DNA from: a virus
Taxonomy: Duplodnaviria > Heunggongvirae > Uroviricota > Caudoviricetes
DNA: 27,343 nucleotides
Virus record (IMG/VR): IMGVR_UViG_2734482779_000006
Location: 1 to 27,343 of that record
Direction: 5' to 3' (one strand)
The notes beneath the pieces are model-generated. The model made no database searches. It saw only the letters and a program-made list of their open reading frames with translations, and was not told the origin of the DNA. The position numbers were made by a program, and so were the translations under genes. Of the stretch, positions 3,877 through 24,046 are shown in pieces; positions within the stretch are counted from its first letter, which is position 1, and the number at the start of each line of letters is the position of its first letter.

Positions 3877-4371
3877 TTATTTTATAGTTTTTATGAATTC
3901 TTTATTAAATCCCTTCGCTTCTCCTGGGTATCTTCCGAAGACAATTTTTATAAAAACAGAAAAAATAAAGATAGCAACGCTTAACAACAATTGCAGTATC
4001 ATTGGAACCCAAAGAACTACAGGCTCTATATTCATGAAACCAAATATTCTTCCGGCGATCATGGCGAAGTACCACACTGTTATCAGCAAACTTAGTGGCA
4101 TATGAATTACTGATATTACCAATCCAAGAGCATCAGTAATTCTGTTTTCAAATTTTTCAGGGGAAAACTTTTCTTTAAGGTAATTCAGTGCGCAGGCCTC
4201 ATTCTCTGGATTTTCAGCATTTTTCCCTATAGCAATAGAAATCTCAGATATCCTTGATTCAATTCTTTTACGTTTAATAAAACTAGAAAAAAAGAACCAC
4301 GCAATCTGCAACCCTATCCCCAGAAATAGAGTTGCGGCAACTAGCACAGCGTAACTCATAGAATCAGACAC
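3877..4371 (-). CDS. small inner-membrane protein, SieA-like superinfection-exclusion candidate
   Basis: Several hydrophobic helices; sits immediately after the gp16-like gene on the opposite strand, where P22 carries sieA; start uncertain (in-frame GTG at 4371 with AGGAGG 5 nt upstream, or ATG at 4359). Confidence 0.4.
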
Positions 4372-4435
4372 ACCAACCTCCTTAGTTTTGTGCAGGATAC
4401 CAGATGATAATGTGTAGTTGGAGTAGCGCGGTTGT

Positions 4436-4526
4436 AATGCAAGCATTTTGTTTTGGTTTTATGCTTGCTTGTATGTGTGTACAGTGTATATAATGCAAGC
4501 ATATATCACAACAAGGTGCTTGCATT
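4436..4526. promoter_or_regulatory. divergent promoter/operator region with four copies of the palindromic motif TGCAAGCA/TGCTTGCA
   Basis: Motif at 4438-4445, 4462-4468, 4494-4501 and 4517-4524; sigma70-like -35 TTGCTT (4465-4470) and -10 TATAAT (4489-4494) overlap copies 2 and 3; copy 4 overlaps the RBS AAGGTG of the 4527 gene. Confidence 0.5.
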
Positions 4527-5519
4527 ATGACAGAAAAGAAAAGTAGTGAAGGGAAAGCTAAGGGCGGGATCGCTCGCGCAAAGTCGCTGACTAAAGAGCA
4601 GCGTTCTGAAATAGCAAAGAAAGCAGCGGCTGCAAGATGGAAGGATAAACCATTAATTGCCACGCATAAGGGATCGTTCCAGCATGAATTCGGGATTGAT
4701 GTTGAGTGCTATGTGTTAAATGATGATAACAAAACTGCCGTTATTAGCCAGAGAGGCATGGGAGAAGCGATTGGTCTTGGCGAAGGTGGCAGCAGGTTGC
4801 CAAAGTTTATTCAGGGGAAAACTATTTCTCAGTATATTGGGCATGAATTAAGGGCAAAACTTGAAAATCCTCTTATTTTTCAATACAAACAGGCGGGCAC
4901 GAACACTCCAGCTAATCCTGTAATACATGGCTACGATGTAACAATATTAATTGATTTATGTCGAGCAATCTCTAATGCTAAAGCTGAAGGTAAGTTGCTT
5001 TCCAGTCAGGAAGGGATTGCTAAGCAAGCCAGAATCATTATTGATGCATCAGCCAAGGCGGGCATTCAGGGGCTTGTTTATGCTTTGGCAGGGTATGACA
5101 GAACAAAAGAAGAGGTAATTCAAGCATATAAGCGATATGTTGCTGAAGAGGCTCGTGAGTATGAAAGAGAGTTCACCCCTGAACTTTATGAGCATTGGTA
5201 TCGTTTGTATGGTATAGACAAACCAGTTAGAGGGCGACCATGGGCGTTTAAATATCTTACGATAGATCACATTTATTACCCATTAGCCAGAAGTGAAGGA
5301 AAGGTATTTAATTTAGCAAAAACTTCAAAAGAAGAGAAAGGCAGCAAAAACGATAAAATACACCAGTTTTTATCAGAGGTTGGAGTTAAGGCTCTTAGAA
5401 CCCAAATAGGTAAGGTTACTGGTATTGCAATGGTTTCTGATACTCGAGAAGAGTATGAGAAATACATAGATGAAAAGGTTATTGGACAAAGAACCATAGA
5501 CTTAAAAGATAAAGAATAA
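4527..5519 (+). CDS. hypothetical phage accessory protein with a basic K/A/R-rich N-terminal segment
   Basis: 330-aa ORF with good RBS and a downstream intrinsic terminator; N-terminus KGGIARAKSLTKEQRSEIAKKAAAARW suggests nucleic-acid binding; located between sieA-like and mnt. Confidence 0.6.
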   Translation: MTEKKSSEGKAKGGIARAKSLTKEQRSEIAKKAAAARWKDKPLIATHKGSFQHEFGIDVECYVLNDDNKTAVISQRGMGEAIGLGEGGSRLPKFIQGKTISQYIGHELRAKLENPLIFQYKQAGTNTPANPVIHGYDVTILIDLCRAISNAKAEGKLLSSQEGIAKQARIIIDASAKAGIQGLVYALAGYDRTKEEVIQAYKRYVAEEAREYEREFTPELYEHWYRLYGIDKPVRGRPWAFKYLTIDHIYYPLARSEGKVFNLAKTSKEEKGSKNDKIHQFLSEVGVKALRTQIGKVTGIAMVSDTREEYEKYIDEKVIGQRTIDLKDKE

Positions 5520-5520
5520 G

Positions 5521-5548
5521 AAAAACCCACCGTCAGGTGGGTTTTTTG
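5521..5548. terminator. bidirectional intrinsic terminator
   Basis: Stem ACCCACC/GGTGGGT with loop GTCA, flanked by an A-run upstream and a T-run downstream; lies between convergent genes ending at 5519 and 5533. Confidence 0.6.
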
Positions 5549-5784
5549 TTTTCTTGCATGTTCCTCAGCGTCTCAAGCAGCGCCTCTTTGAATTTGTCAG
5601 CTTCTTGCTGAGCAAATGACTCAACTGACTTTGGCGACCTATCTTCATCAATCGCGGCCTGCAAAATCATGACGATCTCGGAGTTAACAGAGCGACCATT
5701 TTTTGATGCTCTGACAGCAAGAGCCTCACGTAAAGATTCAGGGATTCTTACCGTAGTTGGAGAAATTGACACACCCTTTGCCAT
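5533..5784 (-). CDS. mnt: Mnt-like ribbon-helix-helix repressor
   Basis: 83 aa, the same length as P22 Mnt; conserved RHH core (RIPESLREALAVRASKNGRSVNSEIV against P22 FRMPMEVREKLKFRAEANGRSMNSELL); divergent from arc as in P22 immI. Confidence 0.8.
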   Translation of the reverse strand: MAKGVSISPTTVRIPESLREALAVRASKNGRSVNSEIVMILQAAIDEDRSPKSVESFAQQEADKFKEALLETLRNMQENKKPT

Positions 5785-5898
5785 ATCACACCTTTGGTAT
5801 TCAATTTGATATCAAAGTGTATGCAAAAAAATTTTGACTAGATATACTCACTTTGCTATCTTTTGTATTCGAAAAGAGTTGTTTGTGTGGAGGGTAAC
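5785..5898. promoter_or_regulatory. divergent mnt/arc promoter-operator region
   Basis: Perfect 12-bp palindrome TTTGATATCAAA at 5805-5816 next to the mnt start; -35 TTGACT at 5834-5839 with candidate -10 TATCTT at 5857-5862 facing arc. Confidence 0.45.
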
Positions 5899-6051
5899 AT
5901 GGAGAAAGAAATAAGTAAGATTTTGGTAAGGATGCCGCAGTCGTTAAAGGATGCTATCGGTAGCAGGGCAAAGGAAGAGTGCAGGTCGTTTAACTCAGAG
6001 GTTATCAAGCGCCTGATAGACAGCCTGAAGAGAGAGGGGGTGGCGATATGA
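5899..6051 (+). CDS. arc: Arc-like ribbon-helix-helix repressor
   Basis: 50 aa from ATG 5899 (GGAGGG RBS); RMPQSLKDAIGSRAKEECRSFNSEVIKRLIDSLKREG aligns with P22 Arc RWPREVLDLVRKVAEENGRSVNSEIYQRVMESFKKEG. Confidence 0.75.
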   Translation: MEKEISKILVRMPQSLKDAIGSRAKEECRSFNSEVIKRLIDSLKREGVAI

Positions 6052-6230
6052 ATAAAGAAGATGGCTTTAAGTGCTCCTTCTGCGGAAAGCCTCAGCATGA
6101 ATGTGCAATGTTGATTCGCGCTAAAGCAGAGATATTTATCTGTAGTGGTTGTGTATCTCTTTGCGTTGAAGCGATGGGGAAAGAGTTAAATTCTAGAAAA
6201 ACAATGTTAGATGTGAACATAAAACAGTGA
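6048..6230 (+). CDS. small zinc-ribbon protein resembling the ClpX N-terminal zinc-binding domain
   Basis: 60 aa; CSFCGKPQHE...IFICSGCVSLC matches the ClpX motif CSFCGKSQHE...YICDECVDLC (C4 zinc site); start ATG overlaps the arc stop (ATGA at 6048-6051). Confidence 0.6.
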   Translation: MNKEDGFKCSFCGKPQHECAMLIRAKAEIFICSGCVSLCVEAMGKELNSRKTMLDVNIKQ

Positions 6231-6292
6231 AGCCCCAACTGCGGTAACAGTCAGGGCTTCGGTTGTCGGTAAATCCGTGGAGAAAAACCAAC

Positions 6293-7195
6293 ATGAATAG
6301 TATAGCAATTTTAGAAGCAGTAAACACCTCTTACGTACCTTTCAATGGTCAGCAGATTATCACCGCCATGGCTGCCGGAGTTGCATATGTTGCGATGAAG
6401 CCAATCGTTGAAAACCTCGGAATGAGCTGGGGTACTCAGCAACAAAAACTTATGAAACAACTAGATAAGTTCAACTGTATTCATATGAATATGGTTGCTG
6501 CTGATGGAAAGCTTCGTAAGTTACTCTGCCTTCCTTTGAAGAAGTTAAATGGGTGGCTGTTCAGCATTAACCCTGAGAAAGTTCGTGCTGACATCCGCGA
6601 TAAACTTATTCAGTACCAGGAAGAATGCTTTACTGTGCTGCATGACTACTGGACGAAGGGAAAGGCAGAAAATGCACGTAAGAAAACATCTGTTGATGAC
6701 AGGACTCCGCTTCGTGATGCTGTAAATATGCTAGTCAGCAAAAAGCATCTAATGTACCCAGAAGCTTATGCAATGATTCATCAGCGTTTCAATGTGGAAA
6801 GTATTGAAGAGCTTGATGCATCTCAGATACCGCAAGCCGTAGAGTACATCCACAGGGTAGTGCTTGAAGGTGAGTTCATTGGCAAACAAGAGAAGAAGAC
6901 CAACGAGCTTTCTGCAAAAGAAGCAAACAGTCTTGTATGGTTATGGGATTATGCCAACCGCTCACAGGCATTATTCCGCGAACTGTATCCGGCATTAAAA
7001 CAAATTCAATCGAACTATTCCGGCAGATGCTACGACTACGGTCATGAATTCTCGTATGTTCTCGGAATGGCGAGAGACGTTTTAATAAACCACACACGAG
7101 ATGTTGATATTAATGAGCCAGACGGACCAACGAATCTTTCCGCATGGATGAGACTTAAGAATAAAGAATTGCCTCCTTCAGTACATAACTACTGA
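6293..7195 (+). CDS. ant: Ant antirepressor
   Basis: N-terminus [22 protein letters not shown] matches the P22 Ant N-terminus as recalled; the true start is ATG 6293 rather than the TTG at 6263; followed by an intrinsic terminator. Confidence 0.85.
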
Positions 7196-7214
7196 CAGAT
7201 AACCAACGCAACGA

Positions 7215-7238
7215 CCCAGCTTCGGCTGGGTTTTTTTA
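7215..7238 (+). terminator. rho-independent terminator after ant
   Basis: Hairpin CCCAGC-TTCG-GCTGGG followed by TTTTTTT. Confidence 0.7.
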
Positions 7239-7305: not shown

Positions 7306-7794
7306 TTATCTAAAACAAGCAAACTCGCCATGATATTTTTCCCTGAATGCAATAGACATCAATTCGGCCAGCTCAATATCATCGGTATACCCAAGGCAAA
7401 TAGACTTACCTTTTAGTTTGAACATAACTTTATATGTGTTTTTCCCTTTAAGAAGATGAACTCCTTTTATACCTGTATTGGATGATGAAACGCTGTTGGT
7501 TTTATTCTGACCTCTGGTTACTTCTCTTAGGTTTGAAATTCTATTGTCATTTTTAACCCCGTTAATATGGTCAATTAACCCTTTAGGCCAGCATCCTTTC
7601 ATATAAAACCAAGCAAGTCGGTGGCAAAGATACGATTTTCCATTAATCCGTATTGATAAGTAGTCGGCCTGTGAGTTCGTCTTAAATCCAGCAACCTTTC
7701 CGATACTGGAGCTACCAGAAGCTATCTTCCAAGTGAAGACGCCTGTTTCTGGGTTGTAGTTGAGTGAAGAGGTTAATTCTTTATGAGTAATCAT
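7306..7794 (-). CDS. HNH homing-type endonuclease (HNH_3/AP2-like)
   Basis: Motifs CHRLAW...GLIDHINGVKNDNRISNLR typical of phage HNH endonucleases; ATG at 7794 has better RBS spacing (AAGGA plus 6 nt) than the ATG at 7800. Confidence 0.75.
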   Translation of the reverse strand: MITHKELTSSLNYNPETGVFTWKIASGSSSIGKVAGFKTNSQADYLSIRINGKSYLCHRLAWFYMKGCWPKGLIDHINGVKNDNRISNLREVTRGQNKTNSVSSSNTGIKGVHLLKGKNTYKVMFKLKGKSICLGYTDDIELAELMSIAFREKYHGEFACFR

Positions 7795-7820
7795 ATTCAT
7801 TCCTTAAATAGAGATTCACT

Positions 7821-10012: not shown

Positions 10013-11170
10013 CTATGATACATTCCCATCAAGCCAGTCCGCCCACCATTGCATCATTTCTCTGCGCTTATCCAGATACTGAGCATGGTTGTAAATCCCG
10101 CGTACAGATCCGCCGTTGGCATGTGCCAGTTGCACTTCAATAGCATCAGCAGGCCATTCGTGCTCGTTCATAATTGTGCTGAATTCATGCCTGAATCCGT
10201 GACCGCTTTCCAGACCTTCATAGCCGATTTGTTTGATCACAAGCAATACCGCGTTCTCGCAGATTGGCTTCTTCTTATCGTTGCGACCGGCAAAAACAAA
10301 CTCTGATACTGGTTTAGTGATTGAGCTTAGCGTAGTGAGAAGTTCAATCACCTGGTCTGACATAGGAACCACATGAATTTTGCGTCCTTTCATCACACTG
10401 GCGTCGATGGTGATAATCCTGTTTTCAAAATCGACGTTCTTCCATTGCATGGAACGAAGCTCTTTAGTTCTTAGGGCTGTATAGCGTAAAACCTTGGTGG
10501 CAATGAGCGATACGATACTTCCTGAAAATGTTGCCAGTGCTTTGTTGAATGCCGGGATCTGGTCTGCAGGAAGAAACGGGAAGTTCTTCTTGCGGTATCC
10601 CTTCATGGCGTCAGCAAGGTCAGGTGCCGGGTTATATTTAGCCCTTCCGGTGACAATAGCGTAACGGAAAACCTCGCCGCATCTTCTGCGTGCTTTGTTG
10701 GCTCGCTCCATTGCCCCGCGATCTTCAAATCTGCGGATTACTTCCAACAGTTGCATCGGCTCAATATCCTGAATTTCAAGGCCGCCGATGATGGGTAAAA
10801 TGTCGTCATCAAACATTTTTGCAAGTTCATTTGCATAGCCTACTGACCAGACTTGCTTCTTGTGCTCGTACCATTCCTTGTAAATGGCGCTAAAGGAGTT
10901 GTTGTTAGACGAAGCCTTTTTCGCCTTTACCGGATCGATGCCAACCGAGATGTCTTTCCTCGCGGTCCATGCTTTATCCCTTGCCTCCTGCAAAGTCATA
11001 AGCGGATATTTTCCGACGGTCAGGATTTTCTCCTTACCGTCAATCTTGTAGCGAAGCTGCCATACCTTTTTCCCGGATACAGGGACATAAAGGTACAGTC
11101 CATTACCATCGAGAAGGCGGTATGGTTTTTCTTTCGGCTTTGCTGCTTCAATCTGCTTAACGGTGAGCAT
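10013..11170 (-). CDS. intS: IntS-type tyrosine integrase (P4-like, argW-specific)
   Basis: 385 aa from MLTVKQIEAAKPKEKPYRLLDGNGLYLYV (integrase N-terminal arm-binding type); catalytic motifs GHGFRHEFST and LAHANGGSVRGIYNHAQY; the 16-bp argW-derived att core lies about 160 bp upstream. Confidence 0.9.
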   Translation of the reverse strand: MLTVKQIEAAKPKEKPYRLLDGNGLYLYVPVSGKKVWQLRYKIDGKEKILTVGKYPLMTLQEARDKAWTARKDISVGIDPVKAKKASSNNNSFSAIYKEWYEHKKQVWSVGYANELAKMFDDDILPIIGGLEIQDIEPMQLLEVIRRFEDRGAMERANKARRRCGEVFRYAIVTGRAKYNPAPDLADAMKGYRKKNFPFLPADQIPAFNKALATFSGSIVSLIATKVLRYTALRTKELRSMQWKNVDFENRIITIDASVMKGRKIHVVPMSDQVIELLTTLSSITKPVSEFVFAGRNDKKKPICENAVLLVIKQIGYEGLESGHGFRHEFSTIMNEHEWPADAIEVQLAHANGGSVRGIYNHAQYLDKRREMMQWWADWLDGNVS

Positions 11171-11330
11171 GGGTAAAAATCCGGTGGGTAAAATTATTTT
11201 ATCCACTTTTTACCCGTCATGTAGTGCGGCTGTCAACGATCTGACGCGAACCATGACGAACTGTAAATCTACGGAAGGCTTGATATTCAGGGGATTTTGC
11301 GGACTGGTACGGATGGGAGCGAACTGATAA

Positions 11331-12204: not shown

Positions 12205-13476
12205 CTATTCTTTCCAGTCAATCCCATCCAGTAAGCACCCTGCCTCATATTGCCCCACCACCCAGTCAAGGTTACAGGACTCATAGAACGAGAGGCGATT
12301 ATACTGAGGCTCGTTTTTTACCAGGCCACGAACGGAACCACGCTGCCAGTACAGACACAGATTGGCAAGAGGTGTGATCAATACAGCATTGTCCGGGAAA
12401 AATGGAACGGTTACAGCCGGGAGATTCCCCAGAACGGGATTTTTAATGATTTCCTCGTTAAGCAAAATTTCCTGATTCATCTGCGATGGATCAAGACGGT
12501 TTATCAAAGGCCATTGTTTACGGACCAGCGTATTGTGACTGCATACGGCCACAATGCCTTCCTGCCACTGTTCATCAATCATGGATTGCCAGGCATCCAG
12601 AACGAGCGCATCTATCGTATGGTGTGTACCGCGTGTATTACTTTTCGGTGATGAAACAGAAAGGCCGCTGATAACCCTTCCCGCCGCTTCATTTCGAAAC
12701 TTCTGCAACCAGCCCACGCCACAATCGTCACGCCCCGGATATGTTTTAGGGTCAGATTTGGCGGCATAATGTGTGCCGTTAAAACCAATCTGAATTAAAT
12801 CCAGCCATTTCCGGCGTTCAAAAGCGGCCCGCGCACTTCCTTCAAGGCCGTTTGCGGATGCGTGAGCATCGGCATTGTCGTAGTTCAACGCAAAATCAAA
12901 ATTAACCTGCTCGCAGCGGTAGCCCCTTGAAACCAGTGAATGCGCCTGTAGTGGCGAACGGCGCTCGTGAGGTGGCGATGTACGTGCCAACGACCCCGAA
13001 GCGTCTACCAGCACAACCCGACCTGATATATCCGTAACAGGCACGGGAGTTATTTCAGCAAGGAAATTTGCCTGCCATCCACTGGCAAGCGTTGCACTCT
13101 GGCGAGGAACGGGTTCAACTTCTGACGAATAGCGCGCAGTGTCACCGGAAAAGTGCAAATCCTTCGGATGCTTTCCGGTTATCGACTCGATAGCGCAATT
13201 GAAAACCATCTGAGACTGTTGATTTCGTTGTGATACAACAGAATCAGCAGTGCAATTATAACGCTCAATGCCGTCGTTATTACCCCCACCGCTTGCAGTA
13301 TGCAGGGTGTGAAGCTCAAGCTCACGCTCCAGTTTTTGATATTCATTGTCCAGCGCGCGACGCGTCTCATCGCTTATGCTTGCTGTGTTTGCTTTCAGGC
13401 GATTCCGGGACATTAATCCCCTGAGTCGGCTCACTATATCAGCGCCGTGCAAATGTGGAGTATTCAGACCGCCCAT
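12205..13476 (-). CDS. candidate P2-family major capsid protein (gpN-like)
   Basis: 423 aa from the ATG overlapping the upstream stop (TAATG at 13474-13478); segments NFDF...GFNG...GWLQKFRNEA...GNLPAVTVPFFPDNAVLITPLANL...NYxSxNLDWVVGQYEAGCL resemble my recollection of P2-family capsid proteins; sits in a late-type operon downstream of an Ogr/Delta gene; needs confirmation. Confidence 0.45.
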   Translation of the reverse strand: MGGLNTPHLHGADIVSRLRGLMSRNRLKANTASISDETRRALDNEYQKLERELELHTLHTASGGGNNDGIERYNCTADSVVSQRNQQSQMVFNCAIESITGKHPKDLHFSGDTARYSSEVEPVPRQSATLASGWQANFLAEITPVPVTDISGRVVLVDASGSLARTSPPHERRSPLQAHSLVSRGYRCEQVNFDFALNYDNADAHASANGLEGSARAAFERRKWLDLIQIGFNGTHYAAKSDPKTYPGRDDCGVGWLQKFRNEAAGRVISGLSVSSPKSNTRGTHHTIDALVLDAWQSMIDEQWQEGIVAVCSHNTLVRKQWPLINRLDPSQMNQEILLNEEIIKNPVLGNLPAVTVPFFPDNAVLITPLANLCLYWQRGSVRGLVKNEPQYNRLSFYESCNLDWVVGQYEAGCLLDGIDWKE

Positions 13477-14186
13477 TACTGCCACCCCCGGCAGAGTTCT
13501 CTGCCCTCCGCAAGGTCGCGCATTTTTTCTGGATTCTGTCGCGCCGCGCTCCATTGTACAGGTGAAGGGGCGCTCCTGATTGCGCAGCTTACTGAATCCG
13601 GGAGTTTCTCCGGGCAATAACGCAGCGGGCTGGAGGTGTCGCTTTCGGTATCGTTAATCCGGCCGCGAATCATCCCGACACTTTCAGCAGTATCTGCCGC
13701 TTTCAGTGTTTCGCATATTTTCTTTTCTGCGTTATACAGCGGCTGGCCAAGCAGCTCACATAAACCACGAATCAATAACAGAACAGGGGTCAGCTCGTTA
13801 ATCAGTTCGGGAAGTGCTTTTGCAAATATCTCTGCCCGCAACTTATTATCAATACTTTCGTAAGCACAACCAGCCTCTGCCGCGTTATAACGACACTCCA
13901 GTAGCCTGATGCGCGCCTCATCATGCAGCACCCGCAGACGCTCAAGATTTTCTCGCGCCACACCCGCCTGAATGGATAATTTCGCGGAGGCTTCCGTTTT
14001 TACTCCCAGCGCAGACAGGATTGAGTTCTGCCAGTCACGATCGAGAGACTCCAGTTCCCCTTTCGTCTGTTCGATAGTCGCTTCCAGATTGGTGACTAAT
14101 GATTCCTGTTCACTGAGCTTTGCCCTGGCTGTATCAAACTGTGCTTTACATACCTGATGTTCGGCGCTTGCCTGAGTTATATCCAT
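13476..14186 (-). CDS. coiled-coil protein, candidate capsid scaffolding or size-determination protein (gpO/Sid-like)
   Basis: 236 aa, strongly helical and heptad-like N-terminal half; translationally coupled to the capsid-like gene; size close to P4 Sid (244 aa as recalled). Confidence 0.4.
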   Translation of the reverse strand: MDITQASAEHQVCKAQFDTARAKLSEQESLVTNLEATIEQTKGELESLDRDWQNSILSALGVKTEASAKLSIQAGVARENLERLRVLHDEARIRLLECRYNAAEAGCAYESIDNKLRAEIFAKALPELINELTPVLLLIRGLCELLGQPLYNAEKKICETLKAADTAESVGMIRGRINDTESDTSSPLRYCPEKLPDSVSCAIRSAPSPVQWSAARQNPEKMRDLAEGRELCRGWQ

Positions 14187-14350
14187 TATTTGCTCCTGTA
14201 ATACATTTTTTACTTACGCCGATTTTTTCCATATTGCGTAATACATTCCAGCCGATTTTGTTCTCGTAATACGCTCACAATACTGTTGTATTACGCTTTC
14301 TTATATCGCGGGTGTTAAATCCCGACATAAACAATCAGGGAGGCAACACG

Positions 14351-14584
14351 ATGAAAAAACAAAAGAAAATGCGATGCGTATTACGCTGTATTCGTATTCC
14401 GCTCGAAATCGACCATAAAATAAATCAGATATGTAAGGACAGAGAGATGAACTACTCCCAGTGCGTCAGGATGTTTATCAGTCAGGGAATTAAGGCTGGG
14501 GAAAAGCATGAAGAAGACCGCAACGGGCGCAATGTCGCGGGGGATGTGTGGGCCTGGGCAAATGACCAGAACCACACGACATAA
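14351..14584 (+). CDS. small ribbon-helix-helix (CopG/Arc-like) DNA-binding protein
   Basis: 77 aa from ATG 14351 (GGGAGG RBS); RCIRIPLEIDHKINQICKDREMNYSQCVRMFISQG fits a beta-strand then helix-helix RHH pattern; divergent from the scaffold/capsid operon. Confidence 0.5.
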   Translation: MKKQKKMRCVLRCIRIPLEIDHKINQICKDREMNYSQCVRMFISQGIKAGEKHEEDRNGRNVAGDVWAWANDQNHTT

Positions 14585-14634
14585 TACAGAAATAACGCAG
14601 CCGGTCACACTCGCTGGCTGTGTTATACAAATCA

Positions 14635-14817
14635 CTATGAAGTTTTCGACTTCCTGCGCTTAGTGATGCGTACAAACGACTCAAGCGTACAAAAACAGGC
14701 CCCGCACTCAATATTATTGCACTGGTAATACGTTTTGTAGATGTTTTGTTCGTGTTCTTCCAACGAACGACCACGGGTGCGGGCTGAAGCGCCACAGGCC
14801 GGGCAAGGGAAAGACAT
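14635..14817 (-). CDS. Ogr/Delta-family zinc-finger late transcription activator
   Basis: CPACGASARTR...YYQCNNIECGACF is the C-x2-C...C-x4-C Ogr/Delta zinc finger; AGGAG RBS 6 nt upstream of ATG 14817. Confidence 0.8.
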   Translation of the reverse strand: MSFPCPACGASARTRGRSLEEHEQNIYKTYYQCNNIECGACFCTLESFVRITKRRKSKTS

Positions 14818-15387
14818 ATCACGCTCCTCTTACTGGTGTGAAATTTAACCTATTATATCTTCCGCCGCCTCCTCTGGCTGTATCAAATAAATCCGCAACG
14901 GTCGCTGCGTATTACGCGCAGGCACACCGTTCCCATACTCACTCCTCACATTCCCCGTATCAGTTCTCTCTTGCAGTAAGAACGGCTCTGGCTGGCGATA
15001 AAACTAACCCGGTCGGGCATTCCCACAGTCTTTAGCGAAAGATGTAATTTACCCCCTGAAACGCGGGCTGTTCCCCCGTCACCTGCGCGCGAAAAACTCA
15101 CCGTTTTTTGTGCACGCACGAAATCGCCCTCCGGGCGCGCCCGTACTGGGCCGGATGGGCAAAAAGTTACTCTAAAAAATTGTGCAAATTTGTGCACTTT
15201 TGTGCAAACGGGAAGAGGCTGTTTAAAGGCGGTTTTTTGCGTTTTTTTGGTAGCTGTAACGTGATGCGTATTACGTTTTTATTCGCTTCTATGTGAAGAG
15301 ATAACAATGATTTCATTCAATTTATTGTGTTGCACTTTTGTTGCTGGTCTTGCCAGTGTTTTTTTGCCTCTACCTCAAAATCCGGTA

Positions 15388-15690
15388 GGGGGTGCGCAAA
15401 CGGGTTACAAAGGTTACAGCCCCCTAAAACACATATTAACACCATGATTTTAAATGAAATTGTTTGTAACCTTTTTGAGGTTACAGAAGGTTACACGAGG
15501 TTACACCAATTAAAAACATATTAATTATCAATTAGTTATAAGCGTGCTCTGTAACCATGCGTAACCTCTGCATAAAGGTTACATGTAACCCTGTTGTAAC
15601 CCATTTTGTAACCTTTTAAAGGTGTTATAATATATTGATATATAATATATTTTTCTGTTTGTAACCTTTGTAACCCGTTTGCGCACCCCC
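15388..15690. repeat. 30-bp perfect inverted repeat (15388-15417 and 15661-15690) flanking an array of about 14 GGTTAC/GTAACC hexamer iterons
   Basis: Left arm GGGGGTGCGCAAACGGGTTACAAAGGTTAC is the exact reverse complement of the right arm; hexamers between the arms often fall at 10-11 bp phasing; AT-rich core TATAATATATTGATATATAATATA at about 15626-15650. Confidence 0.7.
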
Positions 15691-15940
15691 CCCCGGACTT
15701 TAGCGCGCGCCTTTAAAATGTTAATTAAACTAACTTACTATGTGTCACTCTCATTAACTTTCTGTGACTAAAATGTGTCTCGTCACTGTGGAACTCTTTC
15801 TGATAATCAGGGGGCAAAAAATTGATGGCGGCACCACTGCAATATGGCCACCATTGCATTGCTGTTACCGTTGGTTCTGGCCAACAAAAAAGGCCAGTGG
15901 AAAACTGACCTCTTTTGCTGTGAATGTAGTGTTCTGCGGG

Positions 15941-16942
15941 TTACTCTGCTGGCTCTTTTTCTTTGGCGATATTCGCATTAGCCACTGGATTAAACTTCAG
16001 GACATCAGACAAATAATCAGGCGCAAAATGTGCGTATATCATTGTTTGTTGAATATTTGCATGCCCTAAAACTCGCTGAAGAGCAATTATACTCCCTCCA
16101 TTCATCATAAAATGCGTAGCGAATGTATGCCGTAATACATGAACAGCTTGCCCCTTTGGCAGATCTGGCTTTACAGCGCGAAGCATTTTACGGTATTCAC
16201 CATAATCAACATCAAACAACCCCCCCGAATCTTTTGTTTTGATTTCGCGAACAACTTCATTTGAAATGGGAACAATGCGGACTTTACCGTTTTTGGTTTT
16301 GTTAAATATCACACGATTATCAATGATGTGTTCTGCTCGCAAGCTTTTTGCCTCTCCCCATCTGGCCCCCGTACTAAGGCACAGCAATGTAATTCGACGC
16401 GCATCACCATTAGAAAAATTCAACAAACGAATAATTTCTTCATGTGTCAGATATGTCATTTCTGAAATCTTTCGTTTCATAGCGGGAACAGAACGAACAG
16501 GATTTTTACTATGAAATTCTCCACTCTGGATCAACATGGTGAACATTCCAGCCAATTCCGCTTCATCTCGCTGAATTGTAGAAATTTTGACTCCTGCTCC
16601 CAATCTCTCGCTGCGATACATAGCCATAAACCGCGCATTTATTTGTTCTGCTCGCGGATCTCCCATTTCTTTAATTACTTTCTTTAGTCTTAATTTAACA
16701 TTGTCAGCGTATGGTTTGTTGCGTCCACCCAGTTTCCACCACAGCTCCAAGAGTTCAGAAATGCGCCTGTGATCAGCTGGCTTTTCAAGCCACTCTTTAT
16801 CATTCATATGGCTAAGAACATATCGCTCAAAAGCTAAGGCATCTGCTTTCTTTTTAAAAAGCCGCTGAATTCTGCGTCCATACCGCCCGTTTGGCCTGAT
16901 ATCTACCTTATAGGAGCCATCATCACGCTTTTTAACGGACAT
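15941..16942 (-). CDS. P2-type tyrosine integrase/recombinase
   Basis: 333 aa from ATG 16942 (AGGAGGG RBS 9 nt upstream, 3 nt after the primase stop); N-terminus MSVKKRDDGSYKVDIRPNGRYGRR is typical of P2-family integrases; catalytic HVLRHTFATHF and LGHANIQQTMIYAHF. Confidence 0.85.
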   Translation of the reverse strand: MSVKKRDDGSYKVDIRPNGRYGRRIQRLFKKKADALAFERYVLSHMNDKEWLEKPADHRRISELLELWWKLGGRNKPYADNVKLRLKKVIKEMGDPRAEQINARFMAMYRSERLGAGVKISTIQRDEAELAGMFTMLIQSGEFHSKNPVRSVPAMKRKISEMTYLTHEEIIRLLNFSNGDARRITLLCLSTGARWGEAKSLRAEHIIDNRVIFNKTKNGKVRIVPISNEVVREIKTKDSGGLFDVDYGEYRKMLRAVKPDLPKGQAVHVLRHTFATHFMMNGGSIIALQRVLGHANIQQTMIYAHFAPDYLSDVLKFNPVANANIAKEKEPAE

Positions 16943-16944
16943 AT

Positions 16945-19614
16945 TTAGCGTCCCTCCTTGTAGCTGAATATCCAGCATTTCAATACTTCATTTTCTTTAG
17001 CCTGGGCTACCCCCCTTCCGGTGTTCGCCTGTTTGACTACCTCGCTACGGACTGACTTGTACCCAATCAGTGGCCGAGAACGACCAGTCTTGAGAAGCTT
17101 TATCATTTCGGGATTGGTTTGGATCTTCACATGGTGAATAGCGGCAACCTGCTCCAGTTGCGGGATACTAACGGCAAGCCCATTCTGGGATCCCTTGCCA
17201 AAGTGGTTTACGCCGTATGCTGTTATGCCGTCCAGATAGTCGAACGCCTCCCAGAACGCTATTACTTCCGGCAAGTCATCCGTTACCGCTTTAGCTTGTT
17301 CCGCTGCCATTCGTTCCAGTTCCTGGCATGTGGCATTAAGCCATTCATCCGGGATATCAATAACGCATTTCAGCGCCCTGACCAGCGCAATAAGTTGCGC
17401 GTGATTTTTGGCAATACGCTGATGACGAATATTTTCGCAACCATAAAGGCGGGTTGTTTCAGGATCAGATAGTGCCATAAACGTCTCCATAATCGCCCGT
17501 TCCTGACTTACTGCCCGATGGATAAAACCTGATACCTGCTCAACGGGGTAAAGCTCCAGCCGTTTTGCTGCCAATCGGCTATCTGGTGAGTGGCGTTTTT
17601 TATCGGTGTATACGCGTACCAGACGCTCAATAATTGCCGATGAGGCGTTTACCGTGGCATTCTGCGCAATCACGATAGCCCCCTTAAAAACGGGGTCATA
17701 TGTGGCGTTATCATTGGTTTTAACGCCACGCACCCCAATACCGCCACCGTTATAGAGGCTTTTCAGGTTATCGAAATCAAACGCCCCCCTTTTTTGTGCG
17801 TTATCGCCCCTGTCCGCTTCAATCAGAACAACAGGTAATCCAGCAACCTGTCCAAAAGTTCGCTTCCAGCCTGATTCTGAGCCTTTGGTTGGATCAACAC
17901 CTTCATAGTTGTCACGGCCACACAAACGCCAGCAAAAATCAATTAACGTTGTTTTACCCGTACCTGGCTCTCCGGTAATCTCAAGAAAGGGGTAAGATGT
18001 GTTTTTCTGCCTGATTTGTTCGCTGAACAACGAACCCAACCAGAAAGCCAGGGTAATAATTCCCTTTTCACCAAACGCCAGCCAGAGATCTTCCACCCAG
18101 GATGTTGTAAATTCATCCGGTTTTTTATAGTTAATCTGCAATATTGGTTTTTTATTCAATGGTTTTGCGTTTACGCCATCAATTTCAAAATAATCCTCTT
18201 CATTGATTTCGTAGGTTTTACCATTACAAACCGCGATATCATTAAACAACCACGCACCAATCTCTTTGTTGTATCCGATAAAATCCTGACCGATAACACT
18301 TTTTATTGCGGGAAGGTCATTTTTTATTAATGCGTCAAGGTGCGCAGTTGTTCCGGTATAAATACCGCCTTTTGCTACGTGCAACAGACGTTTTTTAAAT
18401 TCAGATGCGGATGTTAATTGCCCTGATGTAAAGGTGTTTTTCACCGTAGCACCATCCGGGAATGTAATGCGGAAGTAATACCATGCTTCATCCGTATCAT
18501 TGTTTCGAATGTAATAAAGCGGCACTGGGTTACAGTTTGCGATTTCTTTTACAGCGCCGGATTCCTTGAGTGCAATTTTGCGCGCTTCATCTTCGTCAAC
18601 ATTTCGCTCATTAATGACACGCTCAACAGCCTTCATATGGCGCTCAATATCCAGCTTGAACCAGAACACACGGTTATCAAAGGGAAAATGAAATTCCTTT
18701 CGCTCACGAAAGGAAAACATTATTAGTGCCTTATCTCTCGGAGATTTCGCCAGCAATAAATCACCGTAATAACGGTATCTTTTCACATCATGGCCACGTA
18801 GCTTTCCGGCGATGTGTAAATCATTCCAGTCGCGTTTATTGTTGTTTTCACCCGGTAACGCCGCTGCCGTTCTCCAGCCGCCTTCGGCGCTGCGTTCTGC
18901 ATGTTTTTTTGCGTAACGCTCACCCGCACGCCCGTTATCCAGCGCCCACACAATAACCGGACGGGGATTATCTCCGCACAGCTTCGCCAGTTCTTCCAGC
19001 GCCTTATCAGGGTAGTTCACGGCAGACATGACAGAAACGGCCGCAATGCCATTCTGGTTAAGGCTGATGGCATCAAAGACACCCTCACAAATCCAGATTT
19101 CTTTGGCCTTGCTTAAATCTGCTCCCGGATAAGCCCACCACAGCCCCTTGTAGCTGCCGGAAAAATTCGCCTTGCGCGCGAAGCGTTCCGGTCGGTCTAT
19201 GATGCGCTCCCACCACACACCGTCAGCCAGCGTAAAACGCACGGTAGCAGCTTGTTCGCCGCTTTCCTTGTCCTGGTATCGCTCCTGAGTAAATGCGCCC
19301 TTCAGTGGCTCCACAGCAATATTGCGCGCCTCCTGAAGATAAGCTGCCGCCGCTGCGTATGGATCGTCTTTCGTGCTGATATAGCGATCTGACCATGATG
19401 AAAACACATCCGGGTAAAGTTCTTTGGTCAGCAGGTCTGTACCGCATTTATTTTCACGCCCGCAGTGTACGATGTACGGCCTTTCAAGGCTGGTAAACAG
19501 CTCCTTCTTTCCACATTGCGGACAAACACCATACCGAAGGTAGTTATTTTCTTCTTTGAAGTTGTAATCACGGATAAGACGGTTAATAATCTCTTTTCTG
19601 GTATCAGGCTTCAT
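16945..19614 (-). CDS. P4 alpha-like primase-helicase
   Basis: 889 aa; N-terminal zinc-binding CPQCGKK...HCGRENKC; Walker A GEPGTGKTT in the C-terminal helicase region; location and size typical of satellite-phage alpha proteins. Confidence 0.9.
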   Translation of the reverse strand: MKPDTRKEIINRLIRDYNFKEENNYLRYGVCPQCGKKELFTSLERPYIVHCGRENKCGTDLLTKELYPDVFSSWSDRYISTKDDPYAAAAAYLQEARNIAVEPLKGAFTQERYQDKESGEQAATVRFTLADGVWWERIIDRPERFARKANFSGSYKGLWWAYPGADLSKAKEIWICEGVFDAISLNQNGIAAVSVMSAVNYPDKALEELAKLCGDNPRPVIVWALDNGRAGERYAKKHAERSAEGGWRTAAALPGENNNKRDWNDLHIAGKLRGHDVKRYRYYGDLLLAKSPRDKALIMFSFRERKEFHFPFDNRVFWFKLDIERHMKAVERVINERNVDEDEARKIALKESGAVKEIANCNPVPLYYIRNNDTDEAWYYFRITFPDGATVKNTFTSGQLTSASEFKKRLLHVAKGGIYTGTTAHLDALIKNDLPAIKSVIGQDFIGYNKEIGAWLFNDIAVCNGKTYEINEEDYFEIDGVNAKPLNKKPILQINYKKPDEFTTSWVEDLWLAFGEKGIITLAFWLGSLFSEQIRQKNTSYPFLEITGEPGTGKTTLIDFCWRLCGRDNYEGVDPTKGSESGWKRTFGQVAGLPVVLIEADRGDNAQKRGAFDFDNLKSLYNGGGIGVRGVKTNDNATYDPVFKGAIVIAQNATVNASSAIIERLVRVYTDKKRHSPDSRLAAKRLELYPVEQVSGFIHRAVSQERAIMETFMALSDPETTRLYGCENIRHQRIAKNHAQLIALVRALKCVIDIPDEWLNATCQELERMAAEQAKAVTDDLPEVIAFWEAFDYLDGITAYGVNHFGKGSQNGLAVSIPQLEQVAAIHHVKIQTNPEMIKLLKTGRSRPLIGYKSVRSEVVKQANTGRGVAQAKENEVLKCWIFSYKEGR

Positions 19615-19660
19615 ATATAAATCCTCTCCCCCCCCCTGTAAAAATACAGGGGGTTATTCT
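19615..19660 (-). other. stem-loop plus G9 tract in the primase 5' leader
   Basis: On the minus strand CCCCCTGTA-TTTTT-ACAGGGGG hairpin followed by GGGGGGGGGAGAGGA and the ATG; no U-tract, so not a canonical terminator. Confidence 0.4.
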
Positions 19661-19966
19661 TTATAATTGTTTATTGCTTTCTGAAATCCCCACAAACCGT
19701 GCAGCATGTAGAGAGAAAGGGCGCTCAGAGTAATAAATATTGCCTTTTATTCTTTCCAGTTCGCGCAACAAAATGCGCAAAATCGCCTTCATTTGTGAAC
19801 CTGATACAATGTCAGCGCCAGGAGTATCTATTGCAATGTCAGAGAAATAAGATAATAAATCAAGTGTTAAAATAACATCACAAAGAGAGTTATTTGCATC
19901 ATCGGAGATAAATCCAACATATTTAGATAAAATATCATGAATAAACATATTCTGATTTTCAGACAT
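19661..19966 (-). CDS. hypothetical protein (satellite early region)
   Basis: 101-aa ORF directly upstream of the primase leader; no recognisable motif. Confidence 0.4.
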   Translation of the reverse strand: MSENQNMFIHDILSKYVGFISDDANNSLCDVILTLDLLSYFSDIAIDTPGADIVSGSQMKAILRILLRELERIKGNIYYSERPFSLHAARFVGISESNKQL

Positions 19967-20033
19967 AAAAGCTCCCCGACCCGTTAAGGCCGAAATATAA
20001 AATTAATTCAGTTATCAGTTGGCAATTCGGGAA

Positions 20034-20252
20034 TCAGGCAGAAAGCTGCGTAACCTTCAACGCCCTGAAATGTGTCATTCCCAGCTCTTCCAGCCCTTCG
20101 GCTGCGCGGCGTATGGCTTCGCCCGGCCCCGTTCCGTATACCGTTGCGTGTGCATGTTTGGTTAACCCGCGCTTATTAACGGCATAACCCAACACAAAGA
20201 AACGTTTTTCACCACTGCCATTATTTTTACGGGATATTGAACGGCTTTTCAT
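20034..20252 (-). CDS. hypothetical small protein
   Basis: 72-aa ORF at the end of a chain of overlapping small genes. Confidence 0.4.
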   Translation of the reverse strand: MKSRSISRKNNGSGEKRFFVLGYAVNKRGLTKHAHATVYGTGPGEAIRRAAEGLEELGMTHFRALKVTQLSA

Positions 20253-20437
20253 TTCTTCACCTTTACCACTGATGCTGTGAGTTCTTCTTCTGGCAATTGA
20301 TATTTCGGCGCAATTTCTTCCGTATACCTGATAGCGTCCCTTGCCGCTTTTCCTTTTGATTTATATTTACGTATCGTGTGGAAGTTTTCTTCCTCTCCTG
20401 TTACCACATTACGCAATTTAATATGGATCTCGTACAT
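20249..20437 (-). CDS. hypothetical small protein
   Basis: 62 aa from internal ATG (MYEIHIKL...); stop overlaps the next start (ATGA). Confidence 0.4.
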   Translation of the reverse strand: MYEIHIKLRNVVTGEEENFHTIRKYKSKGKAARDAIRYTEEIAPKYQLPEEELTASVVKVKK

Positions 20438-20439
20438 CG

Positions 20440-20622
20440 TTACCCCTCCATGATTTTTACTGCGCATTTGTGGGTTAATCGCCCCTGTTTGTCATTGCGG
20501 GAATATGCCATACGACAGGCATCACGCCATGCATCGTCATAAGTCGGGTATTCCCGGGCATGAATCATCTGGCGAACGTCGCCGTTCTGGCAGTTAATCA
20601 GGGTGATAAGGAGCTTAAACAT
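20440..20622 (-). CDS. hypothetical small protein
   Basis: 60 aa from ATG 20622 with GGGAGG RBS 7 nt upstream (MFKLLITLINCQNGDV...). Confidence 0.4.
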   Translation of the reverse strand: MFKLLITLINCQNGDVRQMIHAREYPTYDDAWRDACRMAYSRNDKQGRLTHKCAVKIMEG

Positions 20623-20788
20623 GGCACGCCTCCCGGACACGAATACGGGCAACAAAGACCAGACGGGATGCCGGAAGCAGGGCGCGCGCTTCGCGCTCAC
20701 TGGCAGCGGTAACGGTATGAAGGCGGATATTTTTACCGTGGCACTGCATAAAGCGCCAGATAAAATCAGGGCGTGTTGATATAGCCAT
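20615..20788 (-). CDS. hypothetical small protein
   Basis: 57 aa from ATG 20788 (GGGAG RBS); the longer 175-aa version upstream is low-complexity and unlikely to be coding. Confidence 0.3.
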   Translation of the reverse strand: MAISTRPDFIWRFMQCHGKNIRLHTVTAASEREARALLPASRLVFVARIRVREACHV

Positions 20789-21204
20789 ATGAAAGGCTCC
20801 CAATTCAAGTTTAAGAAGCCTCACTACAACGCTGTCAAACGTGGTGGCGAGACGTAACAGGGTTGACAGACTGGCAAATTGGGAAACCAGCGAGCATAAA
20901 GCTCCCCCATTACGCCCCGCCATAATACGGGAAAGGGTGGTATTACGGGCACAAAAAAACCGCATTACGGAATACAAGCGGCTACCCGCCAATTTATTCA
21001 GGCTGTCAAACCCGGCACCTGTTTTATGAGGTGCGGGCAAACGATACGCCATGACAAAAAAGCGAGTCAAGCAATATTGCAAATTATTTTGGCGCGATTG
21101 CGCTGAGTGATTGATTTTTAAGAGTAAAAAAGCCATAATCATTTCTGCCTATTATTTCTTATTGTTGGTTTCAGGTGCACTAAATGCACATCCTTGACTG
21201 GTTG

Positions 21205-21236
21205 GCTCGCTAGCTTTAGCGAGCTTCTTTTTTTTG
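21205..21236 (+). terminator. plus-strand intrinsic terminator inside the satellite leader region
   Basis: GCTCGCTA-GCTT-TAGCGAGC hairpin followed by TTCTTTTTTTTG; orientation is antisense to the satellite genes. Confidence 0.5.
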
Positions 21237-21697
21237 CTCTGCTGCCAGTACCCGGCCTCCTTCCCTCACATGTAGTAATGTGCCCGCTCCAGTCAGCTGG
21301 ATAATGCTGTATTCCCGGACATCCGGTTATGATGTTTAAAGCGTTTGTTTGTTTATGCCACGTGGAGAATATCCCCATGTCGCCATTACTTGTATTTATC
21401 ATAACAGTTTACCCAATCCGGTTAATGTAACCGGAATAACTCAATTTCATACACTGTAAATAAATGCTGATTTTGAACTTAGCTCCTTGGAATATATTTC
21501 TTACGTGTGATGTACAGGTGAAAATATCCCTCTGATAGTCCATTTTCTTTTATTGGGTCACATCTGTTTACTCCGGTTCCCTTAACAAGGGTAGAGCATC
21601 TTTTAAACCATGAATGCATCTTTGGTTAAGTGATGTTTCTTATTGAATGAAATGTTTAGGCGCATATCGCGCCATGCTGACTATAAAGTGAAAATAA

Positions 21698-21919
21698 TTA
21701 AGCCTGAAAACGTTGTTGTTTTCTTTCTTCTATCCAGTCGATAATTTCCTCTTCAACCCATGCAACCGCACGAGGGCCTATTTTTATTGGTTTGGGGAAT
21801 ATATCAGATTTTATATCTTCGTAAATTCGAGCTCTCGATCTCCCTGTGATTTCAATGACTCTGGGGAGTCTTATTAATTTTTGAATCCGCCTTTCGCTGG
21901 TCTGTGAGTATGCTGACAT
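21698..21919 (-). CDS. AlpA/Vis-family transcriptional regulator or excisionase
   Basis: IRLPRVIEITGRSRARIYEDIKSDIFPKPIKIGPRAVAWVEEEIIDWIEER follows the AlpA pattern RLPxVxxxTGxxRxTIY...FPxP...GxRxVxWxExEIxxW. Confidence 0.8.
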   Translation of the reverse strand: MSAYSQTSERRIQKLIRLPRVIEITGRSRARIYEDIKSDIFPKPIKIGPRAVAWVEEEIIDWIEERKQQRFQA

Positions 21920-22448
21920 ATTGGCCTCCTGTATATGCTGAACACTTTATGTTAGCTCACAGTGGGAGCATGTAAGATCTCGCGGTCGTCTGCGGGACGA
22001 GAAAAATCATAAACAACGAAAAGCGGATTTGTAAATCTGGTCGATTTTCAGACGGGGTTGACATGGACAGTTAGATTTGTTCCATGTGTGAAATATACAT
22101 TTTAGGACCACTTTAAGCCGCTTTAAACCGCCTGGAAGCGACAAAGAATAACAAGTTAGTGCCAGAAAGGTTTGCTGACTTACCCTTTCAGGCACCAGGA
22201 AAGCCCGTTCTGGGGGATGTAATGCTTGCGAACGCTGGAATAGTGGTTTCTGAAAACAAAAAAAGAATTGAAAATGTGATACATATCACAAAATGATATC
22301 GATAAAATAGTTTGATTTTTTTTGTTTTTATTAAAAGCACTGGTTAATTGTGAAAAATTAATTATAAATCAAATAGATATATCTGTTTTTTTAGGGTAAA
22401 AATCACTAGGTGCTTTTAGTGAGGTCTTATTCTATTGATTTTAAAAGA

Positions 22449-22482
22449 TAAAAAAATCGGCGTGTCCACATATTGTCCACGC
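22449..22482 (-). terminator. rho-independent terminator downstream of the satellite integrase
   Basis: On the minus strand GGCGTGGACA...TGTGGACACGCC hairpin followed by GATTTTTTT. Confidence 0.6.
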
Positions 22483-22530
22483 CTTGAGCTTAATTCAGCC
22501 GCTTGGGGTAGTTTAGTTTGTTGAGTTGAT

Positions 22531-23793: not shown

Positions 23794-23971
23794 TATGTTG
23801 ATCCTCCAGACGGGTACAAATAAAAATCGAACCAAGCGTACCCGTTTTTATACCCATTTTAATATGGGCTTCAGGCAAATTTAACGAGAGATAACGAGAC
23901 AATGGAAGAGATTTAACTCATTGAAAAACAATGGGTAATGGTTTTTTCTGAGAGATTGCGAGAAGTTGCGA

Positions 23972-24046
23972 TGGTGTCCCCTGCAGGAATCGAACCTGCA
24001 ATTAGCCCTTAGGAGGGGCTCGTTATATCCATTTAACTAAGAGGAC
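23972..24046 (-). tRNA. argW: tRNA-Arg (anticodon CCU)
   Basis: 75-nt sequence GTCCTCTTAGTTAAATGGATATAACGAGCCCCTCCTAAGGGCTAATTGCAGGTTCGATTCCTGCAGGGGACACCA on the minus strand; cloverleaf with CCU anticodon and encoded CCA end. Confidence 0.9.

Follow-up and report, generated by a model that had tools for sequence, protein, structure and literature searches.

What does a free copy of a protease docking domain do in the antirepressor operon of a temperate phage? The question is raised by a small open reading frame (ORF) at positions 6048-6230 (+ strand) of a 27,343 nt stretch of Caudoviricetes DNA (IMG/VR record IMGVR_UViG_2734482779_000006, positions 1-27,343), which is called the window in the following. 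An earlier note on this DNA had described a 60-residue gene between arc and ant of a P22-type immunity region (immI) with its ATG on the arc stop, and this description holds: the ORF fills 6048-6230 and its ATG (6048-6050) shares bases with the arc stop TGA (6049-6051) in an ATGA overlap. New here is an arc-coupled cargo slot inside the immI operon which, in the window, holds a mimic of the ClpX N-domain. The domain assignment itself is not new, since RefSeq already names the product 'ClpX C4-type zinc finger protein'.

The C4 signature of the ClpX N-domain, likewise reported by the earlier note, is recovered by Pfam, by matches to PDB sequences and by superposition of a model. Pfam zf-C4_ClpX (PF06689) matches residues 8-42 of the ORF at profile positions 2-36 of 39 with 42.2 bits (E 7.6e-11, curated cut-off 27). 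A phmmer search of all PDB sequences returned ClpX alone, with the E. coli zinc-binding domain (ZBD) entries 1OVX and 2DS5 at E 1.7e-7 and 2e-7, respectively. The domain covers residues ~8-46 and is followed by a tail of 15 residues. Identity to the E. coli ClpX ZBD amounts to ~44% over 40 residues. The two share the motifs CSFCGK.QHE and IC..CV.LC, the modelled fold, F16 of the ligand pocket and the pattern CxxC...(18-19 residues)...CxxC, whereby the predicted zinc ligands C9, C12, C32 and C35 align with C14, C17, C36 and C39 of ClpX. In contrast to ClpX, the phage version is a free protein of 60 residues with an extra Cys19, a different C-terminal tail and a changed hairpin turn. It is not a full ClpX unfoldase: both the AAA+ ATPase module and the IGF loop for ClpP docking are missing, and the NCBIfam ClpX equivalogs reach only 29-33 bits (cut-offs 359-371), matching at model positions 3-54 only.

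An AlphaFold2 model built on an alignment of ClpX N-termini shows a beta-hairpin and a C-terminal helix as in the ZBD, with a predicted local distance difference test (pLDDT) score of 91-93 for residues 11-40. It superposes on 2DS5/6/7/8 with a root-mean-square deviation of 0.8-1.1 Å, a target-normalised template modelling score of 0.76-0.86 and a probability of 1.0; as this alignment biases the model to the ZBD fold, the agreement is consistent with the sequence and not an independent proof. The model from the single sequence is of low confidence (pLDDT 59) and a weak check, with ClpX still the top match. Taken together, sequence and model support the ORF as a stand-alone homologue of the ClpX N-terminal ZBD. 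A recent capture of the host gene was also considered. Distant-mode blastn against 5,426 E. coli genomes yields 10 prophage copies only and never clpX, so that a recent copy of host clpX is ruled out.

The immediate setting of the gene is as follows.

5533-5784, - strand: mnt, 83-residue ribbon-helix-helix maintenance repressor (Pfam Arc E 9e-11, FitA-like_RHH E 4.3e-8), divergent from arc.
5785-5898, no strand: divergent control region with putative Pant/Pmnt and operators, by analogy with the P22 annotation.
5899-6051, + strand: arc, 50-residue Arc repressor allele (Pfam PF03869 E 5.4e-12; RefSeq 'Arc family DNA-binding protein').
6034-6040, + strand: Shine-Dalgarno-like GAGGGGG in the arc 3' end, 7 nt before the ATG of the ZBD ORF, read from the sequence.
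6048-6230, + strand: ORF of 60 residues, stand-alone ClpX ZBD homologue, protein MNKEDGFKCSFCGKPQHECAMLIRAKAEIFICSGCVSLCVEAMGKELNSRKTMLDVNIKQ.
6226-6292, - strand: sar antisense RNA (Rfam RF00262, 88.4 bits, cut-off 43, full-length 1-68/68).
6229-6260, - strand: sar terminator hairpin (terminator scan: 14-bp stem, tail ACTGTTTTAT).
6293-7195, + strand: ant, 300-residue P22-type antirepressor (P22_AR_N E 7.5e-45, P22_AR_C E 5.4e-30, PHROG 245 E 1e-96).
7213-7232, + strand: terminator-like hairpin 3' of ant (terminator scan); the P22 ant terminator lies at the same place.

The ORF is short, as expected for a chance frame without translation. A Pfam match of E 7.6e-11 together with a PDB match of E 1.7e-7 is, however, implausible for a random frame of 60 codons, and the ORF starts on the arc stop behind a Shine-Dalgarno-like run. 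We thus regard the probability of a chance ORF as practically negligible.

The window holds a complete P22-type immI with divergent mnt followed by arc, sar and ant. Order and orientation are the same as in P22, including the position of mnt, the sar terminator directly follows the upstream ORF in both phages, and ant is 86.5% identical to P22 ant at the nucleotide level. The difference lies between arc and sar. In the P22 annotation sar (15021-15090) directly adjoins the stop of arc (15022), ant starts at 15091 and the arc-sar gap is empty, which confirms that P22 immI lacks such a gene, whereas the window carries a 183-nt arc-coupled ORF at this place. Of the proposed coupling between arc and ant, the arc side stands. 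The ORF is not coupled to ant, from which it is separated by a 62-nt gap containing the sar target. Its location is more exactly between arc and the sar terminator: the 3' end of sar covers the last 5 nt of the ORF, and the ORF's final codons (ATAAAACAGTGA) serve as template for the U-tract of the terminator hairpin. The right junction TGAAGCCCCAACTGC is kept in four of four aligned phages.

The comparison does not reveal the gene as an integral part of the arc-ant circuit. The arc-sar interval is a polymorphic cargo site, and in related E. coli phages it contains at least three other small arc-coupled ORFs, making the ZBD gene one of at least four alternatives. In phages with the same arc allele each cargo ORF begins on the arc stop and finishes at the sar terminator.

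60-residue ZBD homologue: this window; 10 complete E. coli genomes.
57-residue ORF without Cys (PHROG 17642): phiv205-1; 93 complete E. coli genomes.
89-residue membrane protein (PHROG 27312): S.Kent 1-2-1.
67-residue C4 zinc ribbon (PHROG 7150): strain 10035776-3 and the CUS-3 'boundary sequence'; 372 of the 5,426 complete E. coli genomes contain homologous DNA.

Whichever cargo ORF fills the slot, its final codons (…AAAACAGTGA) are the template for the U-tract in the sar terminator (window 6219-6260). Hence the 3' end of a cargo gene is constrained by the sar termination signal. This also accounts for the end '...MLD..KQ*' shared by the ZBD ORF and the 57-residue ORF of phiv205-1: homology of the two was rejected as BLASTP gives no match, and a common 'KQ*' is expected without homology since AAAACAGTGA is the template of the U-tract. 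Whatever the function of the single gene, the arc-sar junction of P22-like immI is a slot for cargo, which is often unannotated.

The 67-residue ribbon (MSKECCFCGISESDADQTYIYSKETGRMLCSDCV...) is located at 999-1202 of L006 (E. coli 10035776-3) and at 2501-2701 of L017 (CUS-3 'bsq2 boundary sequence'). Its start overlaps arc, and it is unannotated in the rows listed. PHROG 5259, the best PHROG of the ZBD ORF (E 1.2e-7), also matches the ribbon (E 6.7e-5). The direct comparison of both is marginal (BLASTP E 0.024, hhalign probability 32%), and the ribbon is possibly a remote relative of the ZBD ORF. Identities of 95-99% are found for 304 of the 373 records that match the ribbon, and all 19 rows listed at 96.6%, mostly O157:H7, comprise the same 205-nt span. 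In the copy of O157:H7 EC4115 (L098 1340-1775) one extra nucleotide in a run of T at codon 6-7 shifts the frame of the ORF. We therefore rejected the ribbon as a sign of constraint: besides the frameshifted copy, the two intact copies differ by one synonymous and one non-synonymous change. In EC4115 the mnt-arc-ribbon-ant cassette is embedded amid tail genes of a lambdoid prophage (minor tail protein L, C40 peptidase) and not in a P22-like phage. In CUS-3, an unannotated 46-residue arc allele (MKVKTLRMPEKLEK...) is found just upstream of the 67-residue ORF (L017 ~2340-2500); a 2008 comparison describes this phage as apparently without arc (PMC2629481).

The window matches an E. coli P22-like prophage, and a 471-bp query with arc, the ZBD gene and the start of ant is 100% identical in strain AR_0118. 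Apart from the 10 complete genomes, copies are present in four contigs of a large protein collection and five IMG/VR contigs, and every copy is 98-100% identical. An index of 5.8 billion proteins holds only the protein's own cluster, and an exhaustive search of 1.84 billion representatives yields no other protein above ~54% identity. The flanks are far more variable. At least six flank combinations surround an intact, nearly identical ORF: two arc alleles, at least three types of ant (P22-type, a KilA-N type and one with 44-48% identity) and, on the mnt side, at least three kinds of cargo (P63C proteins, a ClpP-like protein or a Panacea/SocA-like pair). A near-invariant gene in shuffled flanks, combined with low GC content (38% in the ORF, 47% in arc, 53% in the sar region), marks a recently spreading cassette, as judged from these sequences.

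The cassette lies in the 'ant moron' between gene 16 and the tailspike gene, for which the 2008 comparison of sixteen genomes reports a rapid flux with ten types (Villafane et al. 2008, PMC2629481); the region is also treated in PMC8022706. Presence/absence polymorphism and deviant base composition are the same here as described there. As far as its description of this region goes, that comparison places cargo mainly on the mnt side and mentions no polymorphic slot within the arc-ant operon (PMC2629481). In line with a moron, the gene is absent from P22 and epsilon34, other ORFs take its place in phiv205-1, S.Kent 1-2-1 and CUS-3, and its GC content deviates. Unlike a moron it has no promoter and terminator of its own on the + strand; the adjacent terminator belongs to sar on the opposite strand.

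How would such a gene be expressed? A consensus scan finds the promoter-like TTGACT-17-TATCTT at 5834-5862 (+ strand) in the mnt-arc control region, whereas promoter and terminator scans reveal neither a + strand promoter-like site before the ZBD ORF nor a + strand terminator between arc and ant. Since the gene seemingly has no own promoter and no terminator separates arc from ant, it would be transcribed from Pant along with both, as in P22, and translated via coupling to arc. Synthesis would thereby be restricted to a short, Arc-limited burst after infection or to the moment when Mnt repression is lost; late read-through may transcribe the gene as well. The ORF would remain outside sar control because sar pairs only with the ribosome-binding site of ant.

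The ClpX N-domain is a hub through which adaptors (SspB, RssB, UmuD) and phage proteins (lambda O, MuA) enter ClpXP. The isolated ZBD reportedly acted as a competitor in ClpXP biochemistry in work of Wojtyra and colleagues from 2003. According to published data SspB, RssB and UmuD dock on the N-domain (residues 1-61), which also makes contact with lambda O, MuA and FtsZ, and occupation of its SspB site blocks degradation of lambda O and FtsZ (PMC3983244). Moreover, the isolated ZBD added in trans inhibits the sigma-S turnover by ClpXP that RssB mediates (PMC7226468). A phage which has acquired this low-GC cargo in the arc-sar slot of its P22-like immI might exploit exactly this. The free ZBD would bind ligands that otherwise dock on the ClpX N-domain, the candidates being SspB-, RssB- or UmuD-type tails of adaptors as well as substrates, for example FtsZ or an initiator resembling lambda O, and would lower their delivery to and degradation by ClpXP for a short time. 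The idea of a decoy has experimental precedent because a free ZBD in trans slows RssB-dependent sigma-S turnover: in vitro, the laboratory fragment titrates RssB, and like the phage protein it is a ZBD without motor (PMC7226468). The laboratory fragment, on the other hand, is ClpX itself, while the phage version is natural and diverged. In favour of a decoy also speak the match in domain and fold, the aligned Cys and F16, the expression logic, the recurrence of ZBD-like proteins in phages and the second C4 zinc ribbon in this slot of CUS-3-type phages. It is the reading that we favour, and we assign a probability of roughly 0.35 to the ZBD protein being a competitive decoy for one or more ligands of the ClpX N-domain.

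The earlier note knew of no described function for such a gene in P22-like immunity regions, which agrees with the literature: in the library covered, our searches turned up no functional study of a stand-alone ClpX-ZBD protein, none of a phage ClpX inhibitor and no report of a natural free-ZBD inhibitor. Located in the best-studied antirepressor operon, the gene makes mimicry against a host protease open to direct test.

Several observations weigh against a decoy and call for caution, namely the altered hairpin turn, the exchange of I46, the failure to demonstrate constraint and the presence of unrelated cargos in the same slot, besides the dependence of the fold model on the ClpX alignment stated above. 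The turn LIAGP, conserved as (L/V)(I/V)AGP in almost all aligned ClpX and paralogue sequences, reads LIRAKAE in the ZBD ORF and is one residue longer. F16 and I46 of ClpX form a hydrophobic side pocket that serves TF, lambda O, SspB and RssB (PMC7804408). F16 is kept as F11, I46 corresponds to A42 (V42 in the variant P0001) and I47 to M43; the hydrophobic helix positions L38, V40 and M43 are kept. The slot needs no ClpX-related function, as the 57-residue ORF without Cys and the 89-residue membrane protein, both unrelated, occupy it in sister phages. Furthermore, degrons that ClpXP reads by its pore, such as an ssrA-like C-terminal AA, would be unaffected by a decoy of the N-domain. The gene is also rare: of 5,426 complete E. 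coli genomes, no more than 10 carry it.

Constraint was evaluated on the copies of the 10 complete genomes, the four contigs of the protein collection and the five IMG/VR loci. Six substitutions are observed over all of them (C9Y, G13stop, S33N, G34S, A42V and N57S) and none is synonymous. Under neutrality this has P ~0.19 and is not significant; the ratio of non-synonymous to synonymous substitution rates (dN/dS) is uninformative, and purifying selection is not supported by the six changes. Three of the 10 complete-genome copies are probably inactive. NCCP12480 has lost a zinc ligand by C9Y (verified in the sequence), O15_8X is counted solely on its identity of 99.4%, the same as that of NCCP12480, and MFDS1019527 carries the premature stop G13stop, with ant also broken by IS2. 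The stop is found in one IMG/VR contig, too.

Such a pattern is what one would expect from a passenger of little or no present function, i.e. a recently acquired moron fragment which, carried by recombination at the 3' end of arc and at the sar terminator, is decaying in prophages. Six protein-changing substitutions as opposed to no synonymous one, the lost ligand, the premature stops, the identity value of O15_8X and the rarity all fit this picture, as does the sister ribbon with its frameshift in EC4115 and a single 205-nt span in all O157-type rows listed. Against it, the ORF is intact in at least six flank combinations, suggesting recent spread and not simple decay, the translational coupling is perfect with the Shine-Dalgarno-like run kept, and the excess of protein-changing substitutions is not significant. 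We consider a mere passenger unlikely.

The changes in the docking face are also compatible with a fold that serves merely as a compact, zinc-stabilised binding module for another target (for example Ant, a repressor or another host protein), neither competing with ClpX nor affecting ClpXP. The adaptor-binding face is only partly conserved, with the AGP turn lost and Ala in place of I46, and outside ClpX zinc ribbons of this type abound as parts of tandem-repeat and fusion proteins. In phages they mostly carry helical extensions that vary, suggesting that their partners are diverse. However, only the single-domain paralogue P0136 resembles the ORF more than the enterobacterial ClpX ZBD does (34 bits, 1OVX), the ORF retains F16 and the hydrophobic positions of the helix, and the gene context points to no other partner. 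A module of this kind is possible, though we would not expect it.

A further alternative is a heterodimer formed with the ClpX N-domain itself, the phage protein being either a poison partner of ZBD dimers or an adaptor-like tether that brings a client. The ClpX ZBD works as a dimer (PMC7804408). The phage protein, a putative dimer as well, keeps L38, V40 and M43, and its 15-residue tail could carry a signal. The dimer of the ClpX ZBD is said to be stable and constitutive, as Donaldson and colleagues and Wojtyra and colleagues reportedly found in 2003. Exchange with a partner of 44% identity is hence doubtful, and a heterodimer appears quite improbable.

If the competitive decoy is nevertheless carried further, a natural docking-domain decoy made together with Arc in the first minutes would transiently re-programme the input of ClpXP, and the 67-residue ribbon of the CUS-3 type would be a second, more diverged version of it. 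A phage initiator, sigma-S, UmuD' or FtsZ might then be spared, or a host response that depends on ClpX adaptors blunted, and the protein would be the first known protease modulator that mimics the substrate-docking domain of the protease. This extension is speculative and on the present evidence rather doubtful.

Phages modulate host proteases by T4 PinA, T7 Gp4.5 (Lon), lambda CIII (FtsH) and lambda RexB (ClpP-dependent O turnover). If the ZBD protein is a decoy, it would join them as a small early phage protein that reshapes host proteolysis; none of the four is known to mimic the protease's own substrate-docking domain or to target the ClpX N-domain. A parallel in genome organisation is icd of phage P1, a small ORF which overlaps ant and is translationally coupled to it. 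Both icd and the ZBD ORF are small ORFs upstream of ant in an antirepressor operon of an immI controlled by antisense RNA. In contrast to icd, the ZBD ORF is coupled to arc, ends at 6230 with ant starting 62 nt further on at 6293, and has a different fold.

ZBD-like proteins are not restricted to this locus. Five PHROG families match the ZBD ORF (5259, 6797, 12435, 20296 and 3680), and these, including the 110-residue protein of P88/PhiR44_2, resemble it by a zinc-ribbon domain and by their occurrence in accessory or early regions of temperate phages. They differ by an identity of at most ~57%, and most keep LIAGP and an N-terminal helical extension. None of the surveyed phage ZBD-like genes lies beside arc or ant. 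In IMG/VR, ZBD-like segments are encoded at no fewer than 280 loci. Of the 75 best distant loci, ~40 are full-length ClpX genes and ~35 code for small non-ClpX proteins of 67-183 residues, in which the ZBD is usually C-terminal after a helical extension. Among the 141 neighbouring ORFs of 23 such loci we find S24/helix-turn-helix repressors (4), integrases (4), Mu-like GemA/DUF3164 (2), recombination genes and methylases, families typical of early and immunity regions of temperate phages; Arc and Ant are not among the 25 most frequent neighbour families listed for these loci.

The P2-like 110-residue family (PHROG 6797) combines a helical N-terminal part with a canonical C-terminal ZBD (E 1e-13 with the ClpX model). 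Its gene is located in the gpA-Q (gpA-to-portal) accessory region beside a ParM-like gene, as in PhiR44_2 (L007 2324-2656) and ~18 IMG/VR loci such as L034. The exhaustive protein search returned 1,509 representative clusters at E <= 1e-3, with tandem arrays of 2-6 repeats as top matches. Many of the metagenomic proteins P0002-P0030 are composed of 2-6 tandem ClpX-like zinc ribbons and would form 'single-chain ZBD dimers'; no literature on such tandem proteins was found. A function of the phage gene would provide a first handle on the many ClpX-like zinc ribbons, stand-alone or tandem, that phages and bacteria encode.

Some candidates from these searches were discarded. The 'single-domain 55-66 aa ZBD proteins' of the large protein search are N-terminal fragments of ordinary ClpX and were used only as modelling alignment. 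Searched by tblastn, the phage collection gave as its best full-length match an entry named 'Bacteriophage sp.' (MT835703), which is in fact a tig-clpP-clpX locus of a bacterium. A role as defence system was rejected as well, as PADLOC-DB 2.0 gives no match at E <= 0.1 for the ZBD ORF, the 67-residue ribbon or the P2-like 110-residue protein. The same applies, with less rigour, to an action against toxin-antitoxin defence. CmdTAC requires ClpX, and its degron is an ssrA-like C-terminal AA. Since the pore, not the N-domain, recognises this degron, a decoy of the N-domain is not an obvious block of CmdTAC, and the idea, though attractive, is weak.

The mnt side of the region carries cargo of its own. 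In the window it consists of a SieA-like superinfection-exclusion gene (3877-4446, - strand, PHROG 7745 E 1e-108) and a gene for a 330-residue P63C-domain protein (4527-5519, + strand, PHROG 2384). In many related immI regions a 178-residue ClpP-like gene overlaps the mnt stop (L004 651-1187, - strand; L001, L006, L009-L012 and L021). It matches Pfam CLP_protease with E 4e-12, and its closest structure is 9UXT, a ClpP paralogue of Pseudomonas plecoglossicida (E 4e-35). Owing to the overlap with the mnt stop, this gene is presumably expressed from the prophage along with Mnt. A functional tie to the ZBD ORF was considered and rejected, since the ClpP-like gene, found with the ZBD ORF in several loci, equally accompanies the 57- and 67-residue cargos and is absent from the window. 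Other prophages with the ZBD gene (L005 304-1171, L014 1102-1969 and L020) have a Panacea/SocA-like antitoxin-domain protein on the mnt side (E 1.8e-24), followed by a 139-residue protein with a weak match to PADLOC NsnC. The two likely represent a toxin-antitoxin or defence pair.

Between ant and the tailspike gene, the P22-like prophage has an HNH endonuclease gene (7306-7800, - strand, HNH_3 E 4e-15, PHROG 99) inserted in the opposite orientation, and the related AR_0118 prophage contains further HNH/NUMOD4 genes within the head gene cluster. Directly after the integrase of the P22-like prophage (10013-11206) a second mobile element spans 12205-23835. It encodes a P2-family capsid-domain protein, a Toprim primase of 889 residues and two integrases, and Rfam detects a C4 antisense RNA and isrK at 20840-21034. 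The element looks like a P4-like satellite and adjoins a tRNA (23975-24046) as well as host formate/nitrite-transporter and mlaA genes.

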